Under the pieces are notes generated by a model. The model did not search any database and had not been told where the DNA came from. It saw only the letters and a program-made list of their open reading frames with translations. Shown one piece after another: positions 4,157-11,769 of a DNA stretch of 32,157 nucleotides. How positions within the stretch are numbered: the first letter of the stretch is position 1; each line of letters opens with the position of its first letter. Made by a program: the position numbers and the translations under genes. The stretch covers positions 1-32,157 of the forward strand of contig CAZVTX010000003.1 in the NCBI GenBank assembly GCA_964629395.1. The letters run 5' to 3'. The stretch is from an uncultured archaeon. Its GTDB lineage: Archaea; Asgardarchaeota; Lokiarchaeia; Sigyniarchaeales; SOKP01.

Positions 4157-5014
4157 ATGAAAAAAATTTTAGACGGTAAAAAATTAGCCGAGAAACTTAA
4201 TTTAGAACTTAAAGAAAAAATTTCGGAAATTTATAATAAAATAGGTAAAAGACCAAAATTAGCTACTATTCTAGTAGGTGATAATCCCGCATCAAAAGTA
4301 TATGTAAATATAAAACATAGAACTTGCAAAGAAGTTGGGATTGAATCATTATCTATAGAACTTAATGAAAACATCACTAAACAAAAACTTATAGAAGAAA
4401 TTGAAAAACTCAATAAAAATCCTGATATCCATGGGATCCTTCTCCAATTACCATTACCTAAAAATTTGGCACCTTATACTTCAGAGATTTTAGAAAAAAT
4501 TGATTATAATAAGGATGTCGATGGGTTCCATCCAATTAATAGAGGAAAATTATTTGATTATAATGAAGAATTAGCTCCATGTACACCCAAGGGAATTATT
4601 GCTTTATTAGAACATTATAATATAGATCTTAAAGGTAAAGAAGTGGTTGTAATAAATCGATCTAACTTAGTCGGAAAACCGTTAATTTTTATGCTGTTAA
4701 AAAGAAATGCAACGGTAACAGTTTGCCACACATCCACAGTTAATATTGAAAAACATATTGGTAGAGCCGATATCTTAATAGTTGCAGTTGGCGTACCCAA
4801 ATGGAAGAAAATCTCGAAAAATACGATAAAAAAAGGCGTTATTATAATTGATGTCGGTATTAATAAAATAAACGGAAAATTATGCGGTGATGTTGATTTT
4901 GATGAAGTATATGAGAAATGTAGTTATATTACGCCGGTTCCTGGAGGTATCGGCCCCTTAACGGTAAGCTTTTTACTTCAAAATACATTTACCGTTTTTA
5001 ATAAAAATTTATAA
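4157..5014 (+). CDS. folD: Bifunctional 5,10-methylene-tetrahydrofolate dehydrogenase/cyclohydrolase
   Basis: 285 aa. The strings ILDGKKLAEKL...PKLATILVGDNPASKVYVNIKHRTCKEVGI, HGILLQLPLP, DVDGFHPIN, VVVINRSNLVGKP and ITPVPGGIGPLTV are the standard FolD layout. Confidence 0.92.
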   Translation: MKKILDGKKLAEKLNLELKEKISEIYNKIGKRPKLATILVGDNPASKVYVNIKHRTCKEVGIESLSIELNENITKQKLIEEIEKLNKNPDIHGILLQLPLPKNLAPYTSEILEKIDYNKDVDGFHPINRGKLFDYNEELAPCTPKGIIALLEHYNIDLKGKEVVVINRSNLVGKPLIFMLLKRNATVTVCHTSTVNIEKHIGRADILIVAVGVPKWKKISKNTIKKGVIIIDVGINKINGKLCGDVDFDEVYEKCSYITPVPGGIGPLTVSFLLQNTFTVFNKNL

Positions 5015-5142: not shown

Positions 5143-5598
5143 ATGGCGATCTTTGAGGTAGGAATTAACATAGGCAATAGGAATTTATTAGATATTCAGT
5201 ATTATTCAGCATCAAATAATCAAGGATTAGATTCTAATTTAAGAGCGGGGTTTTTATCCGCACTAGAGAGTTTTACAACCGAAGTTTTCGGAGATAATAT
5301 TAATGTCGTTAGCTTGGCTTCTTTTAAACTTGTTTGCCACAGTCAAACGATCTCATTTGGGGATGAGCCAGATAAAAAAGACCTTTTATTATGTTATGCA
5401 ATTATAGAAAAAGATACGGATGTAGATATAGTCAATGAACATTTGAAAATTATTACCGAGCATTTCTTAAATCGATTTTCTTCATATGATATTTTAACAA
5501 AGAAGAAAAAATATTTTAGAAAATTTGAAGAGAGAGTAAATGATATTTTAGGGGATTTACGGCTTAAAATACAAGATAGATTTCGTGCTATATTTTAA
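5143..5598 (+). CDS. Small longin-like (beta-beta-alpha-beta-beta-beta-alpha) domain protein, function unknown
   Basis: 151 aa. The apparent secondary-structure pattern is strand IFEVGINIG, strand LLDIQYY, helix LRAGFLSALESFTTEVFG, strands INVVSLASFKLVCHS and LLLCYAIIEKD, helix DIVNEHLKIITEHFLNRF. It shares the F(L/F)SA(L/I)xSFxxE helix with the N-terminus of the 6829..7782 product. It lies 22 nt upstream of the GTPase gene. Confidence 0.55.
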   Translation: MAIFEVGINIGNRNLLDIQYYSASNNQGLDSNLRAGFLSALESFTTEVFGDNINVVSLASFKLVCHSQTISFGDEPDKKDLLLCYAIIEKDTDVDIVNEHLKIITEHFLNRFSSYDILTKKKKYFRKFEERVNDILGDLRLKIQDRFRAIF

Positions 5599-5607
5599 TT
5601 TATTTTT

Positions 5608-5613
5608 GGAGGG
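5608..5613 (+). promoter_or_regulatory. Shine-Dalgarno-like GGAGGG, 7 nt upstream of the TTG start of the DRG-like gene
   Basis: ttggaGGGttgatttTTGagc. This shows SD-led initiation on a non-ATG codon in this genome. Confidence 0.5.
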
Positions 5614-5620
5614 TTGATTT

Positions 5621-6817
5621 TTGAGCTCAAATATCGGCCCAGAAGCTAAAGCTGCTTATCAAAGATATCTTGACGCAGGTTCTCTGGAAGAAAAAATTAA
5701 ACGATTGGAAGAATTCTTATCATTAGTTCCAAAACATAAGGCAACAGAAAAAATTGTTGCTTTAAATAGATCCAGATTAGCTAAATTAAAGAGAGAGCAG
5801 GAAGAACGTAGATTAAGAGTTAAAAAGAGTATCGGAAAAACATTAAGCCCTTTTTCGATAAAAAAAGAAGGTATACAATTAATTCTAATAAGTGACTATT
5901 ATTCTCCTGGTGCGGGTAAAACTTCTCTATTAAATTATTTAACAGGTGCTGCAAAGGAAAAAATTGGACGCTTTACTGCACTTCCGGAAATAGGTATATA
6001 TAAATATAAAAAAATTAGATTTCAAATTGTAGATATGCCCTCTCTAATGGAGGGTGCATCTCAAGGAGTAGGAAATGGTAAAGAGATTTTATCAGCTATA
6101 AGAAGTTGTGATTTAATATGTTTTATAATTGATCTTTCGAGAAATTATAAAACTCAAATGGAACATCTTTTAAAGGAGTTGAATCGTGCAGATATAAAAA
6201 TTAATACAAATCCTCCTCCAATTGAAATCCAAAAAACGGGCGCTAATAAAATTCAAGTATATTATTTAACTCCAGAAGCAAAAAATATTAAAAATATCGA
6301 TGAATTTACGGAAAAGGTAAGAGAAATTGTTTATGAAAATGGAATAAGGAATGGTATCGTTAAAATTTATGGCAAAATAAAATTAGGTGATATTGTTGAT
6401 GCTTTAACACCTTCAATGGTATATAAAAAAGCAATAATTATCGCTACTAAAGGAGATTTACCGCATACTGGAAAGCGTTTTGAAAATCTTAAAAAAGATT
6501 ATTCACACCTTTTTGAAGTAATAATCGGTTCAAGTGTTAAAAAACATAGTTTCCCGCAAAATTTCGGTGATATAATTCTGGACGTTTTGGAAAAAATTAA
6601 AGTTTATACAATGAATAATGGTGTTATTGCAGAAAAACCATTAATACTTGATAAAAGAGCTACTGTTAAAGATGTCGCTATTAAAATACACAAAAGTTTC
6701 TATGAAAAGTTTGACTATGCAATTATTATTCGGGAGAAAGATAAACAAAAACGAAAACGTGTTGGATTAGACTTCCAAATGCAAGAAGGAGATATTATTG
6801 AGATTCATATAAAATAA
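5621..6817 (+). CDS. DRG/Rbg-family (Obg-like TRAFAC) GTPase with C-terminal TGS domain; divergent G motifs
   Basis: TTG start. The N-terminal KHKATEKIVALNRSRLAKLKRE aligns with the DRG [22 protein letters not shown]. The P-loop is YSPGAGKTS. IVDMPSLMEGASQGVGNGKEILSAIRSCDLICFIIDL aligns with the DRG DLPGIIEGA...R...LI..V.D region. An S5D2L-like insert is present (IKINTNPPPIEIQKTG), G4 reads ATKGD, and there is a TGS-like tail (KVYTMNNG...LILDKRATVKDVAIKIHKSF...RVGLDFQMQEGDIIEI). Confidence 0.85.
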   Translation: MSSNIGPEAKAAYQRYLDAGSLEEKIKRLEEFLSLVPKHKATEKIVALNRSRLAKLKREQEERRLRVKKSIGKTLSPFSIKKEGIQLILISDYYSPGAGKTSLLNYLTGAAKEKIGRFTALPEIGIYKYKKIRFQIVDMPSLMEGASQGVGNGKEILSAIRSCDLICFIIDLSRNYKTQMEHLLKELNRADIKINTNPPPIEIQKTGANKIQVYYLTPEAKNIKNIDEFTEKVREIVYENGIRNGIVKIYGKIKLGDIVDALTPSMVYKKAIIIATKGDLPHTGKRFENLKKDYSHLFEVIIGSSVKKHSFPQNFGDIILDVLEKIKVYTMNNGVIAEKPLILDKRATVKDVAIKIHKSFYEKFDYAIIIREKDKQKRKRVGLDFQMQEGDIIEIHIK

Positions 6818-6828
6818 TTTGAAAATCT

Positions 6829-7782
6829 CTAATTTAAATAGTCATCAATATTATCACTCATCTTTAGAATATTTGATACAATTTCGGAGAGTTCATGCTC
6901 AGAGGTACTATCCTTATCGATTAATTTTTGAGCCATTTCCCTATATTCTTCCCATTTTTTACTTGCGGTGATATTTTTTAATTTTGTACTGAAAGAATAC
7001 AAATTTAAATATACATCCTTGAAATCTCCTTCCTTGATAGATTTCTCGCCCAATCTCTCAACTGCTTTATTAATATTTTCCTTTACGCTTTTTAAATAAT
7101 AATCCAACTTTAATTTTGTATCTTTTATCTCATCTTTTAACTGCTTAACTTCTTTTTGATAATGTAGAAAACCATTATCATCTTTTAATTCTTCGGACAG
7201 TTTTAAAATCTTTTCCGCAATTGCTAATTTTCTTAATAAATTCGTTGTTTTCTCAAGTCTCCTAATTAAGAAATCTCTCTCTTTAATTAAATTTTCTCTT
7301 TTTTGTTCCGGAAGCTCCCCTTTGTATTCCCACATCGTTTTTAGGAGCTCTCCGGGCTTCTCCAAAATGGATGTTCCCTCAACTAGTTTCTTTTTTGATA
7401 ATATTAATTCTGTTAATGGTTGGTCAAGTATTGAGAACTCATCTCTATTTCCGTCCCATTCCAAAAAAAGTTGCTGATGTTTTAACAATATTTTAATTAT
7501 TTTCGGGATTAATTTGTTAACGATCTTTACATCTTCTTGATCTACAATTAAAACTAAATCTGCCTTAATCTCAGGAATAGATGTTATTAATATTGTATAA
7601 TCTCCCAATCCAATATTTTTTAATTCTTTTGAACCTTCTAAAATCATTTCGGAAATAAAACTTTTTATTGCGGAGAAAAAAGAGCTGAACAATTCCATCT
7701 TTCCTTTACTGATATCTTGGAAATTCTTGTCATACATCAAAATACCGGATGTACTCTGGTAAATAAATATCGAATATAACAT
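6829..7782 (-). CDS. Longin-like N-terminal domain fused to a long helical/coiled-coil C-terminal region; function unknown
   Basis: The ORF opens at TTG 7785 and is immediately followed by ATG 7782. The N-terminal roughly 110 aa (LYSIFIYQSTSGILMY / MELFSSFFSAIKSFISEMI / DYTILITSIP / ADLVLIVDQED / KIVNKLIPKIIKILLKH) parallel the 5143..5598 product. The remaining roughly 190 aa are charged and heptad-like (IKERDFLIRRLEKTTNLLRKLAIAEKILKLSEEL, KEVKQLKDEIKDTKLKLDYYLKSVKENINKAVERL). No TM segment is present. Confidence 0.55.
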   Translation of the reverse strand: MLYSIFIYQSTSGILMYDKNFQDISKGKMELFSSFFSAIKSFISEMILEGSKELKNIGLGDYTILITSIPEIKADLVLIVDQEDVKIVNKLIPKIIKILLKHQQLFLEWDGNRDEFSILDQPLTELILSKKKLVEGTSILEKPGELLKTMWEYKGELPEQKRENLIKERDFLIRRLEKTTNLLRKLAIAEKILKLSEELKDDNGFLHYQKEVKQLKDEIKDTKLKLDYYLKSVKENINKAVERLGEKSIKEGDFKDVYLNLYSFSTKLKNITASKKWEEYREMAQKLIDKDSTSEHELSEIVSNILKMSDNIDDYLN

Positions 7783-7852
7783 CAATATACACCGTTGTCG
7801 ATATAGATTGGGATTATATATTTTCCATAATTGTTAATTGTTATTAAATTTG

Positions 7853-8524
7853 TCAGATCCGTTCCTTTATTTTGGCAATTATAAATGGAATCTCTTCAAT
7901 TTCTTTTTTGTAGTTCATTTTTAAATCGGGGATTCCCTCAGATATATTCTTAATAGATTCAAAAGTATATATTAAGTTTTCTAAATAATCAATTAAATCA
8001 CCTTTGAATATGACAATTTTATAATTTTCTCTTAAATAATAAGATATATCTGAAATTGAAAATCCCTCATTTGTTCTTAAATGAAATATAAGTCTTTCGA
8101 GGTTTATTCTACCACATTCACAAAAAGGATTATCCTTACAATTACAATTAAATATATCATTTGTCCATTTAAGAACCATGTCAATAAAATTCTTTGAAAA
8201 TTTTTTACGCTTTCTTACATATTCAGCATTCATTAAAGATAATACACTTGCACTGAAAAAATTATTAGAAAAATATTTCATATTTGTATTTCTTGAGAGA
8301 TCTGCAACAATTTCTTTAGAAATATAAACATTTTTTAATGGTTTTAAGTCAAGAGCTATTTCTAAAATAGATTTCTCTTTAGCTCTTAATTCGGATATAA
8401 GTTCTAAACTCTCATCTACAGTTAGAAAAGATTTAGCTATAGACCTTCCCAATTCCGTTATGATAATGTCTCCATTTTTTAGATTATCGATTAATTTTAA
8501 ATTTTTTAATTTAATTGAATACAT
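7853..8524 (-). CDS. Helicase-associated protein (possible detached C-terminal module of the upstream SF2 helicase) with a Cys cluster
   Basis: 223 aa. Its start overlaps the stop of the helicase gene by 14 nt (8511..8524), suggesting translational coupling. It contains CNCKDNPFCECG. The N-terminal part looks wHTH-like (IITELGRSIAKSFL). Confidence 0.6.
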   Translation of the reverse strand: MYSIKLKNLKLIDNLKNGDIIITELGRSIAKSFLTVDESLELISELRAKEKSILEIALDLKPLKNVYISKEIVADLSRNTNMKYFSNNFFSASVLSLMNAEYVRKRKKFSKNFIDMVLKWTNDIFNCNCKDNPFCECGRINLERLIFHLRTNEGFSISDISYYLRENYKIVIFKGDLIDYLENLIYTFESIKNISEGIPDLKMNYKKEIEEIPFIIAKIKERI

Positions 8525-10475
8525 CAGATTGATTTATTCCATTATCATACATCGAAATAAATGCTAATAATTCGGTCAGCGATTTGTTCTCATCAGGAGG
8601 GTGCTCAAAATCCTTTATTTTTCCGTTTAAAAGCTTGATTGCAATATTTTCCTCTGAAATCTTCATTTTAGGAGAATATATTTTACCGGGTTCAACTAAA
8701 AGATATGCTAAACCTTTTGTATGCTTTCTTAAACGTCCTGCGCGACCTAACATTTGTTCAAATTCTGCTACGGTTAACCAATTAATTCCCATAGCTAATG
8801 ATTCAAATATAACTTGACTTGCAGGAAAATCTACACCTGCCGCCAAAGCCGCAGTTGCTACAACTGCGGACAATTTTTGCTCTTGGAATTCCTGTTCAAT
8901 TACTTTTCTTTCATCCAAGGTTAACCCTGAATGATATGCTTTAACGCTAAGACCTTTATTTTGCAAATATAACGCTAAATTTTCGCATTTTTTACGGGAA
9001 TTTGTAAAAACGATCGATTGTCCCCGAAAGCCAAACTCAGATTTAATATAAAAAGCGGATCTAATTAAATTTACGATATAATTTTGTTTTATTCTCTCAT
9101 TTTTACATAAAATTAAATGCCTTTCAATAGGAACAGGTCTATTAGTATATTTTATAAGCTTACATCCTAATTTTCTAGCTAAAGTCCCAGGCTCTCCCAA
9201 AGTTGCACTTAAATATATATATTGAGCATCAGGATAAATCGATTTTAATCGAGCGATGAAGCCATCTAAAATGAATCCTCTATCCTTATCTATTAATGTT
9301 TGAATCTCATCGATAACAATCGTTTTTATCTTTCCTAAAAATGTATATTTACCATTTCTCAGGATATAATCAATTGCCTCATATGTTCCTATTATAATTT
9401 CAGCATTCATTAAATCTTCTAAATTATCTATATTGTTTTTCTCTAATAGTGATTCTCCTATTTTTTTAACTATATTTAAATTTAGAATTGAATATCTTTT
9501 TTCAAATTCTTCTGTTCTTAAATTTGCTAAGGCTACTATCGGAACTACATATAACATACGATCATTTCTATTTTTAAGGAGTTTAGAAACTCCCGCAAGT
9601 TCACCAATTAAAGTTTTACCTCCAGAAGTAGGTGCCATTATTAATTGATTTTCATGGTCTTTCAATAGACCATTCTCTATTGAAATTGCTTGAATAGGTA
9701 AAAGTTTTGAAATATTTACTTTTCTAAAAACTTGTTTAAAACTTTCGGGAATTTCCAAATTTTCAATAGAATAATTTAGATACTTATCGCTAACTTTTGA
9801 TTGTTTCTCTATATCATATAACGTAATATCACGATTTTCTGAAGGTTTAAAATCTGCTTTAAAAACACTAAGAACCTTTTGGACACTTTTAAATTTTAAA
9901 ATCATATGATTAAAAAAATTTTTCAATTTTGGCTTGACTTTATCGCTGTCAATTAGTCCCGTAAGTTGAATTTCCCGAAGCACATAGTCCAGTGCACATT
10001 TAGGACATAATATTCTATTATTTGAGGCTTTTATTTGATTATTCTCATCTAATATCGTGAAAACCTTCTCTTTAAGGCAAAATTCGCAAAAAATAAGATT
10101 AAGGATCTTTTTTTCATTAAATTGAAAATTCTTAAGCATCTCTAAAAGCGGATTAAAATCCTCCTTTTTAACCTTCTTTGAAAAGGAAATAAATTGATTT
10201 TGTTCTGATAAAATTAATTTTTTAAATAAATCTGGATTTAAAGGCTTTTCACTTCCATCATTTAATATTTTTATAAATTGAAGAGGTCTAAATCTATTCT
10301 TTAAATCTAATCCGATTAGTACCCAACCTCTTAAAAATGGTTTATCAACATACGATAGTGCTGCTTTTTTCTTCTTTAAGGTTTTAATATAAAAGAAATT
10401 CACATTATAAATTATTCCGCTTTTATCGTTCCGTTCACTATCTAAAACTATAAAGAAATTTTTCAATTTGGTCAA
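8511..10475 (-). CDS. Superfamily-2 DEAD/DEAH-box (Ski2/Hel308-like) helicase with an extra roughly 270-aa N-terminal region containing a Zn-ribbon-like pair
   Basis: TTG start; a TAA lies 6 codons upstream in frame. Helicase motifs: I APTSGGKT, Ia PIVALAN, II VIDEIQ, III LSATLG, V ATAALAAGVDFPA, VI QMLGRAGR. The N-terminal region has CEFC...CPKC. Confidence 0.88.
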   Translation of the reverse strand: MTKLKNFFIVLDSERNDKSGIIYNVNFFYIKTLKKKKAALSYVDKPFLRGWVLIGLDLKNRFRPLQFIKILNDGSEKPLNPDLFKKLILSEQNQFISFSKKVKKEDFNPLLEMLKNFQFNEKKILNLIFCEFCLKEKVFTILDENNQIKASNNRILCPKCALDYVLREIQLTGLIDSDKVKPKLKNFFNHMILKFKSVQKVLSVFKADFKPSENRDITLYDIEKQSKVSDKYLNYSIENLEIPESFKQVFRKVNISKLLPIQAISIENGLLKDHENQLIMAPTSGGKTLIGELAGVSKLLKNRNDRMLYVVPIVALANLRTEEFEKRYSILNLNIVKKIGESLLEKNNIDNLEDLMNAEIIIGTYEAIDYILRNGKYTFLGKIKTIVIDEIQTLIDKDRGFILDGFIARLKSIYPDAQYIYLSATLGEPGTLARKLGCKLIKYTNRPVPIERHLILCKNERIKQNYIVNLIRSAFYIKSEFGFRGQSIVFTNSRKKCENLALYLQNKGLSVKAYHSGLTLDERKVIEQEFQEQKLSAVVATAALAAGVDFPASQVIFESLAMGINWLTVAEFEQMLGRAGRLRKHTKGLAYLLVEPGKIYSPKMKISEENIAIKLLNGKIKDFEHPPDENKSLTELLAFISMYDNGINQSDVFN

Positions 10476-10700: not shown

Positions 10701-10818
10701 TTTTTTTCATTTAATTTAATTTTATTCTTAAAATTAATTCGTTAAATCTATATAAAAATTTAAATGCTCTATGTATATTTATTTCTTTATACCAATTAAA
10801 AATTTGTATTTCCATATT

Positions 10819-11769
10819 ATGCCAGATGTTTATATTAAAACACCAAATTTAGATTCCATCTTTGAAAAATGGAAAAATCAAGAAGTAAGAAGAAATAAAA
10901 AAAAGATGGAAAAAGAATTTGGTACGAAAGGTGCAGTATTTTCGCTAAATCAAATTAGTGCTGCTGAATTTGTTAAAAATACAAATAAGGAAGCTGCGAT
11001 ATATTTTGCAATCAAAAAATCAACCGCTCCAGCTAAAGGCAGCGAAATAAAGGCAATACCTGCTTCTAAAATAAATAGAGAAGTTTTTTATTCCTTTAAA
11101 GGACAAAAAGTAAATAAAGAAAATTGGAAGGATAAAGAAAAGGTGCCAATTTTTGAATCTATAAAACAAATTCCATGTGATTCATGTAAAGGAAAAGGTT
11201 TTACTCAACAGAAATGTAAATCTTGTAAAGGAACAGGAAAGGTTCAATTGAAAGGAACAGTATTAGTCGGAGAAAACAAAGAAAAAAAAACACACATTTT
11301 TGAGATTCCTTGCGCTGAATGCTATGGAACGGGCAATATACAAGCTAGATGCCGAGAATGCGGGGGTCATAAATATAATTTTCAGTATGAAATCCGTCCC
11401 GTGCCCTTTATTACTGTTGTCACAGGTATCCCCGTATTACATGCAAGCACAAGAAAGTATGAGAAAGAAATAGGAGAAGATCTTCATAAATTAATCAAGG
11501 AGGTAGAAGGCATCAAATTTAAAGATTTCAAAACATTAGAAGCTAAGGCTGAAGCATCATTAGGATATTTCAATAAAAATATAAAAAAAGCAATTTCACT
11601 AGCAAAAAGTGATTATACACAATTTCAAAAAGATAAAAATGCAGAGATAATTACACAAATTCATCTATTCCCGCTGATACAATTGATCTGTACAACAAAA
11701 AGAGGTTCTAATTTTGAGATCTATAGTATTGGCTCGCAAAATGGCTTTATAATTTATTCAACATTTTAA
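10819..11769 (+). CDS. Protein with a DnaJ cysteine-rich (CR)-type zinc-finger module (4x CxxCxG) but no J domain; function unknown
   Basis: ORF track 10771..11769. The first 16 codons are low-complexity, so the ATG at 10819 (MPDVYIKTP) is preferred. The motifs are CDSCKGKG, CKSCKGTG, CAECYGTG and CRECGGHK, arranged as two nested pairs as in the DnaJ CR domain. Confidence 0.7.
   Translation: MPDVYIKTPNLDSIFEKWKNQEVRRNKKKMEKEFGTKGAVFSLNQISAAEFVKNTNKEAAIYFAIKKSTAPAKGSEIKAIPASKINREVFYSFKGQKVNKENWKDKEKVPIFESIKQIPCDSCKGKGFTQQKCKSCKGTGKVQLKGTVLVGENKEKKTHIFEIPCAECYGTGNIQARCRECGGHKYNFQYEIRPVPFITVVTGIPVLHASTRKYEKEIGEDLHKLIKEVEGIKFKDFKTLEAKAEASLGYFNKNIKKAISLAKSDYTQFQKDKNAEIITQIHLFPLIQLICTTKRGSNFEIYSIGSQNGFIIYSTF

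Follow-up and report, generated by a model that had tools for sequence, protein, structure and literature searches.

Does a longin-fold protein serve as a partner of a DRG-type GTPase in the Lokiarchaeia? The question is raised by contig CAZVTX010000003.1 of assembly GCA_964629395.1 (Lokiarchaeia; Sigyniarchaeales; SOKP01), a stretch of 32,157 nucleotides (nt) referred to below as the window. A gene for a small longin-like protein, gene A, lies there immediately upstream of a gene for a DRG-like GTPase, gene G, and a second longin-like gene, B, converges on G from the opposite strand. The initial annotation read this arrangement as a possible GTPase–regulator module with two longin-like members, and the three open reading frames (ORFs), with lengths in amino acids (aa), are found where it had placed them:

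5143 to 5598, + strand: gene A, 151 aa from an ATG start, predicted longin-fold protein
5599 to 5620, + strand: A–G spacer, 22 nt, with GGAGGG at 5608 to 5613
5621 to 6817, + strand: gene G, 398 aa from a TTG start, divergent DRG-family GTPase with a helix-turn-helix (HTH), a G domain with an insert, and a TGS domain
6829 to 7785, − strand: gene B, 318 aa from a TTG start, or 317 aa from the ATG at 7782

We found that A and G look like a conserved two-gene transcription unit, which would be transcribed from a promoter upstream of A. That A is, in addition, the partner of G is a tentative reading, which we put somewhat short of an even chance: the predicted folds, the gene order, the spacing, the conservation, and the motifs are as described below, and the binding and regulation would be hypothetical. 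The adjacency of B proved to be a feature of only some of the related genomes.

The GGAGGG motif in the spacer ends 7 nt before the TTG start codon of G, and the sequence thus bears out both the 22-nt gap and the Shine-Dalgarno (SD) motif that had been noted in it. Related genomes were scanned with a close alignment of A (A1) as the query and one genome per GTDB species. The scan found 121 relatives, and the analysis used the 80 best loci; the orthologues returned are 58-66% identical to A, and deeper lineages were sampled through single look-ups. G is downstream of A on the same strand in 79 of the 80 species-representative loci, and the 80th ends at a contig edge. A survey of this adjacency in related genomes had been proposed as a check, and it shows that the order is conserved. 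The gap from A to G has a median of 24 nt (interquartile range 21-36; 81 related loci), compared with medians of 166 nt from FolD to A and 94 nt from the prenyltransferase-like gene to FolD, the other same-strand gaps upstream. Most of the A–G gaps contain a purine-rich SD-like motif. The start codon of G is TTG in 53 of 79 species, and that of A is ATG in 79 of 80. The tight gap, the SD-like motif, and the weak TTG start together form the signature of a two-gene operon, and the last two are typical of an internal operon gene.

The A–G arrangement is kept in more than 110 independent Lokiarchaeal loci. The two genes are also paired in every metagenome contig retrieved with B that is long enough, and the pair persists in two divergent loci (L117 and L125), where A is 51-52% and the neighbouring helicase 48-49% identical. 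At another locus (L093), A, G, and B are contiguous although an IS605 OrfB/TnpB-type gene (6954 to 8141) has come to lie between FolD and A, and on the other side B is parted from the helicase by two genes. Thus, A and G co-occur on the same strand with a short, conserved spacer, as expected of an operon pair, and the co-transcription-like layout suggested for the window, with its tight gap and SD-like motif, is kept across loci. The supposition that the genome is Asgard-like was also correct, since the close homologues of A, B, and G all come from metagenome-assembled genomes (MAGs) of Promethearchaeota (Lokiarchaeia).

What kind of GTPase does G encode? Pfam MMR_HSR1 (5e-13) and TGS (1.5e-11) match above threshold. 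The DRG-specific MMR_HSR1_Xtn reaches 32.9 bits against a cut-off of 35.2, and a precomputed listing has this domain in all homologues. Yeast Rbg1 (4a9a; E 1.3e-30) aligns from residue 10 to 373 with residues 21-395 of G, and Rbg2 aligns likewise end to end; Obg structures match the G domain of G only. G has the full DRG architecture, with an N-terminal HTH, a G domain carrying an S5D2L-type insert, and a C-terminal TGS domain. Its earlier designation as DRG-type is therefore upheld by both the Pfam domains and the full-length alignment with Rbg1 and Rbg2.

The nucleotide-binding motifs of G, however, are not canonical. Among 121 family members, G1 reads [YF][HY][TV]PG[VA]GK[TS], in which the first Gly of the canonical GxxxxGKS is missing; G3 reads [DE]MP[SA], without the Gly of DxxG; and G4 reads TKGD, where NKxD is canonical. 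The P-loop Lys/Thr, the switch-I Thr119 (FT motif), and the Asp residues of G3 and G4 are near-invariant. Judged by these motifs, G is a divergent, lineage-specific branch of the DRGs rather than a typical DRG. The DxxG glycine gives flexibility to switch II in Ras-like switches, and its replacement throughout the family thus suggests that the cycle is altered, and not that the enzyme is dead. As a clade-specific variant of the DRGs whose switch II is non-canonical, G would be a useful finding even if the link between A and G were spurious.

A has no sequence match in Pfam, NCBIfam, or the PDB. An AlphaFold2 (AF2) model of A, built on 41 orthologues, has a predicted local distance difference test (pLDDT) score of 77.7 and a predicted template modelling (TM) score, pTM, of 0.77. 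The model has strands at residues 3-10 and 13-19, a helix at 31-47, strands at 54-58, 61-71, and 79-89, and a helix at 94-111, followed by three further helices. The predicted order, β-β-α-β-β-β-α(-α), with a five-stranded sheet and no N-terminal helix, is the longin topology. In a Foldseek search against the PDB, the VAMP7 longin domain was the top match (E 1.3e-4, TM 0.59-0.65), followed by AP sigma, Sec22b, Ykt6, and NPRL2/3, and the leading matches have TM scores of 0.55-0.65 at E ~1e-4. Roadblock/LAMTOR structures rank below the longins for A. Membership of A or B in the roadblock/MglB group was rejected, as the topology and the best structural matches are those of longins. The longin-like order of strands and helices that had been read from the sequence of A is thus borne out by the model topology and the Foldseek matches, and a longin fold for A is firmly supported by the model.

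A profile search of 1.84 billion representatives yielded only 140 clusters for the A family. Pfam Longin (PF13774) is matched below threshold by 10 of 59 full-length family representatives and Fuz_longin_1 by 3 of the 59, with a best E of ~5e-5; P0497, the one Fuz_longin_1 match that was scored individually, has 23.1 bits against a cut-off of 26.1. No curated longin model matches above threshold for A or B, or among these 59 representatives. A is also the slowest-evolving protein of its block of neighbouring genes, with a mean Kimura distance of 0.278 compared with 0.39-0.87 for the neighbours (0.39 for G and 0.43 for FolD), and purifying selection is strong on both A and G. R34 and R146 of A are invariant in close orthologues, and R111 is present in at least 90%. 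The C-terminal E-D-R-F motif is nearly invariant. Family-wide it takes the form [ED]-D-R-F..F, with R146 in at least 90% of the broad A family, and it lies in a region of low pLDDT; it may be a docking or fold-back motif. A thus represents an unannotated, very strongly conserved family of Lokiarchaeal longins with several paralogues, and it too is useful whatever the fate of the A–G link.

The A-type longin domain is also found as an N-terminal module in P0362, P0364, P0431, and P0483, which are fusions to TPR plus PRTase-CE, TIR, a TFIIB-type zinc ribbon, and a winged helix. The fusions to TIR and PRTase-CE resemble effectors of conflict systems or of signalling, in which the longin would be the sensor or adaptor. 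The closest group of A paralogues (Lokiarch_47780, P0361; 46-53% identical), found in L084, L085, and L095, has the same three genes in its vicinity, which encode a cyclase, a histone deacetylase, and a protein of ~736-738 aa without a Pfam domain. Where the cyclase gene stands with respect to the paralogue varies among the loci, and a profilin gene is nearby in L095. A paralogue from Lokiarchaeum ossiferum (P0516) converges on a gelsolin-domain gene, whose end it overlaps (L088, 5001 to 6273).

The identity of the top structural matches raises the question of whether A is a SNARE-like or adaptor-like longin, autoinhibited by C-terminal helices folded onto the longin groove as in closed VAMP7 and Ykt6, with a role at membranes or the cytoskeleton that involves no GTPase. 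The best matches are closed or peptide-bound forms of VAMP7 (4b93, 4afi), with 140 of the 151 residues aligned; the family as a whole retains the C-terminal helices and the DRF motif; and an actin-family gene is retained in the block, with gelsolin and profilin genes near two of the paralogues. However, a SNARE motif spans ~60 aa, and the C-terminal helical region of A is only ~30 aa long, with no transmembrane segment. The structural matches have only moderate TM scores (0.55-0.65), pLDDT is low in the tail, and the cytoskeletal neighbours may be coincidental. More generally, SNARE longins (VAMP7, Sec22b, Ykt6) and adaptor subunits (AP sigma, COPI zeta) are the best Foldseek matches of both A and B, but at only 6-17% identity, and neither protein has a SNARE motif, a membrane anchor, or adaptor large-subunit genes nearby. 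We consider this explanation very improbable.

How would A act if it is the partner of G? In the model that we propose, a promoter in the AT-rich spacer between FolD and A would drive the A–G transcript; this spacer is 128 nt and promoter-sized in the window, which is itself AT-rich (GC 26-34%). G would be translated from its weak TTG codon behind the SD-like motif ~7 nt upstream. In a purely hypothetical step, A would then bind G as a stoichiometric partner. By analogy with the DFRPs of eukaryotic DRGs and the longin/roadblock platforms of small GTPases, A would stabilise G, localise it, or tune its GTPase cycle. The unusual switch II of G, which is strictly conserved, fits a modified cycle.

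Longin and roadblock folds are recurrent GTPase-binding platforms, as in MglB, Ragulator, TRAPP, Mon1-Ccz1, FLCN/NPRL2, and SRX (see also PMC10933270, PMC12290439). No classical GTPase-activating protein (GAP) or guanine nucleotide exchange factor (GEF) is known for Obg-family GTPases (PMC8629797). Eukaryotic DRGs need a dedicated small partner, a DFRP, which stabilises the GTPase and stimulates its activity without being a classical GAP; the known DRG partners are these eukaryote-specific DFRPs, and archaeal DFRPs are uncertain (PMC8629797). Our literature search found nothing on a longin partner of a DRG or Obg GTPase, or on an Asgard DRG, in agreement with the earlier statement that no longin-type partner is known for this class.

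The closest known parallel in function would be the DRG–DFRP pairs (Rbg1–Tma46, Rbg2–Gir2, DRG1–DFRP1, DRG2–DFRP2). G resembles their GTPases in its full architecture and in its alignment with Rbg1 and Rbg2, and the role proposed here for A, that of a small dedicated partner, would be analogous to that of a DFRP. However, DFRPs are extended or disordered and wrap around the TGS and G domains, whereas A is predicted to be a compact longin with no similarity to DFRPs (no Pfam match), and G differs from those GTPases in its non-canonical G1, G3, and G4. No DFRP-like gene was seen in the window.

In gene arrangement, the A–G pair resembles bacterial and archaeal MglB–MglA and an Asgard operon of LAMTOR1-like, Rab-like, and DENN genes (10.1101/2020.10.19.343400), in each of which a small longin or roadblock gene adjoins a same-strand GTPase gene and the pair is conserved in its lineage. 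The GTPases of those systems, however, are small members of the Ras superfamily, whereas G is a 398-aa DRG of the translation-factor type, and A has the longin topology, without an N-terminal helix, rather than that of a roadblock protein. If the partnership is true, A–G would be a new variant of the longin/roadblock–GTPase theme and the first case of a longin platform used by an Obg/DRG GTPase, since these platforms have otherwise been associated with small GTPases of the Ras superfamily that act in membrane traffic and nutrient signalling. It would also provide a functional counterpart of DFRPs in the archaeal lineage closest to eukaryotes. The Asgard expansion of longin and roadblock proteins is large and mostly uncharacterised, and clients have been identified for few of its members. 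With a conserved longin–DRG operon, one of these orphan longins would gain a concrete client, and the longin platform would be linked to translation rather than membrane traffic. The most specific form of the proposal, in which A is the dedicated longin subunit of a DRG-class, translation-factor-type GTPase, the archaeal functional counterpart of DFRPs, with the DMPS switch II as an adaptation to a partner-dependent cycle, appears to us rather unlikely.

Is the conserved adjacency of A and G sufficient to argue for a partnership? The neighbouring genes bear on this question. Upstream of A, the window has genes for a CBS protein, an actin-family zinc-ribbon protein, a prenyltransferase-like membrane protein, and FolD, and a helicase gene is located beyond B:

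1301 to 2842, + strand: actin-family protein with C-terminal double zinc ribbons (Pfam Actin 9e-71)
4157 to 5014, + strand: FolD, upstream neighbour of A, with Pfam THF_DHG_CYH domains; in the conserved syntenic block
7853 to 10475, − strand: DEAD/Helicase_C helicase with DUF5814, downstream neighbour in the block, as two overlapping ORFs (7853 to 8524 and 8511 to 10475)

The order actin-family zinc-ribbon protein, prenyltransferase-like protein, FolD, A, G, helicase is found in all 80 loci. The simplest alternative is that A and G are neighbours without a partnership, held together because the syntenic block rearranges slowly. G would act alone on the ribosome, as is assumed for archaeal DRGs. 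A, as one of many Asgard longin paralogues, would serve another partner, for which small Arf-, Rab-, or Rag-like GTPases and cytoskeletal or membrane proteins are candidates.

Several results weigh against a partnership and are those expected of mere neighbours. The whole 10-kb block is syntenic in the 80 species, even for genes that have no plausible connection with a GTPase, so the conserved adjacency of A and G discriminates poorly and adds little beyond the tight spacing. At one locus (L077), the pair is split by a gene on the other strand for a secreted or membrane protein of 235 aa (5516 to 6223). None of seven distant A-family members that were looked up (32-53% identical to A) has a GTPase neighbour; among the seven are Lokiarch_47780, a protein of Lokiarchaeum ossiferum, and a paralogue whose assembly also carries an A–G locus. 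The longer members of the A family examined, among 140 representatives, include no fusion of a longin to a GTPase, and have TIR, PRTase-CE, winged helix-turn-helix (wHTH), or Zn-ribbon domains instead. The C-terminal DRF motif is common to the unlinked paralogues, so its target is unlikely to be specific to G. Thus, neither linkage beyond the background synteny, nor linkage in paralogues, nor a fusion was found for A and G.

Covariation of evolutionary rates was examined by a mirror-tree analysis, using Kimura distance matrices of six block proteins from 61 taxa and partial correlations controlling for the other four. The partial correlation between A and G is 0.09, and higher values were obtained for the actin-family zinc-ribbon and prenyltransferase-like proteins (0.58), the actin-family zinc-ribbon protein and A (0.48), and G and the helicase (0.41). 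This gives no support for co-evolution of A and G, although the test is weak and we do not count it as a refutation.

A further point against A as a regulator of G comes from the known longin GAPs. The FLCN/NPRL2/SMCR8 class is defined by a GP motif in the β1–β2 loop together with an arginine finger (PMC12290439). The β1–β2 loop of A is G11-N12, without a GP motif, and the motif is likewise absent from that of B (S13-G14-I15); membership of either protein in the FLCN/NPRL2-type GAPs was therefore rejected. The fold itself is shared with FLCN–FNIP, NPRL2–NPRL3, C9orf72–SMCR8, Mon1–Ccz1, and TRAPP, and chains of NPRL2/NPRL3, TRAPP, and Mon1–Ccz1 are among the structural matches. However, besides the missing GP motif of A and B, the known clients of these complexes are Rag, Arf, and Rab.

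The Asgard background is also consistent with neighbours only, as most eukaryotic-signature genes of Asgard genomes are outside conserved neighbourhoods (10.1101/2020.10.19.343400). The same is true of most of the ~130 roadblock/longin Asgard clusters of orthologous genes (asCOGs) in these genomes (10.1101/2020.10.19.343400). Against this reading, the gap between A and G is specifically tight (median 24 nt, compared with 94-166 nt), the start codon of G is weak and preceded by an SD-like motif, and A and G stay joined where insertions break the flanks, as in L093. We regard the absence of a partnership as a serious contender, itself a little under an even chance, and a true partnership of A and G stands about level with it.

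What kind of protein is B? Translation probably starts at the ATG at 7782, since homologues begin with MLY or MIY. No sequence match to B was found in Pfam, NCBIfam, or the PDB. The AF2 model (pLDDT 81) has a longin-like domain at about residues 1-130 and an all-helical domain at about 144-317. The first domain has strands at 3-10 and 16-21, a helix at 27-49, strands at 56-60, 63-70, and 75-82, and a helix at 83-102, followed by more helices. A Foldseek search with the full-length model gave AP-1 sigma3 as the top match (TM on target 0.73), followed by COPI zeta, TRAPP, and Ykt6, at E 4e-3 to 3e-2. None of 37 B-family members matches a Pfam longin model, and the C-terminal domain gave noise (CheZ, HEAT_ECM29). 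The longin-like order ascribed to the N-terminus of B is thus reproduced by the model and its longin-class matches, and a longin fold for B is moderately supported by the prediction.

As had been noted, B ends on the opposite strand 11 nt from the end of G (G stop at 6815 to 6817; B stop at 6829 to 6831 on the − strand). This orientation means that B cannot share a transcript with G. Of the 80 species loci, 74 could be scored for B: it separates G from the helicase in 17 of them and is absent from 57. The claim that two longin-like genes bracket the GTPase gene therefore holds for the window but not for the clade, in which B is present at 17 of 74 scorable loci. When metagenomes were scanned with the B family, B was found to converge on G in 32 contigs, and in another 15 no G was close by. 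In three of these 15 (L101, L103, L106), B is a close orthologue at 57-58% identity. No GTPase is among the neighbours that were checked in L103, which encode an acetyl-CoA transferase, a glycosylase, and an M48 peptidase. More distant B orthologues (35-41%) also occur in unrelated neighbourhoods with no GTPase.

These data bear on the larger module proposed at the outset, in which A and B would both regulate G and be dedicated to it, perhaps as a GEF-like and a GAP-like protein, or as a longin heterodimer such as Mon1-Ccz1 or NPRL2-NPRL3. Eukaryotic longin GEFs and GAPs are usually heterodimers, a habit that lends this idea some appeal, as does the presence at this locus of two longin-fold proteins that appear to be distant homologues. 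B also converges on G in 17 species loci and 32 metagenome loci, and the A–G–B trio is intact in L093 despite the flanking insertions. However, B is missing from 57 of the 74 scorable loci that keep A and G, and is an inconstant neighbour of G; its orthologues (57-58%; 35-41%) occur in GTPase-free neighbourhoods; it is on the opposite strand; and the evidence for a longin fold is weaker than for A (Foldseek E ~4e-3; 0 of 37 in Pfam). A module that includes B is improbable, and this part of the initial annotation found no support, given that B is missing in most genomes and has orthologues elsewhere. B is a separate protein, with a longin and a helical domain, that adjoins G in one subclade and is not obligatory to the A–G pair.

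Are A and B nonetheless related to each other? The helix that they share, GFLSALESFTTEVF in A and SFFSAIKSFISEMI in B, had been described as a near-identical amphipathic helix, but only 6 of its 14 residues are identical. BLASTP of A against B gives E 0.11, and hhalign of shallow profiles aligns 18 columns, corresponding to the shared helix, at 6% probability. With a diverse A-family profile, hhalign to B gives 79% probability and E 1.5e-5 over 73 columns, from β2 to β5. B is also the sole match among the window ORFs when these are searched with the A-family profile by hmmsearch (E 3e-5). From these profile comparisons, A and B appear to be homologous at the level of the domain, as distant relatives. 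Their description as paralogues would be valid only at the domain or superfamily level (hhalign 79%), and they are not close paralogues (BLASTP E 0.11).

The two ORFs of the helicase with DUF5814 overlap by 14 nt in the window, and relatives that were looked up have a single protein of 851-892 aa. The split points to a frameshift, which may be genuine, programmed, or an assembly error. Beside the helicase, at 10771 to 11769 on the + strand, is a gene for a 332-aa protein with a sub-threshold match to the DnaJ_CXXCXGXG zinc finger. This neighbour is also present in L002 and L091, so the syntenic block is longer than the genes considered above. Several MAGs titled Hodarchaeota, Hermodarchaeota, Thorarchaeota, and Odinarchaeota (among L004-L083) have the same block order, at 60-66% identity. 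Because of their resemblance to MAGs titled Promethearchaeota, these phylum labels may be unreliable.

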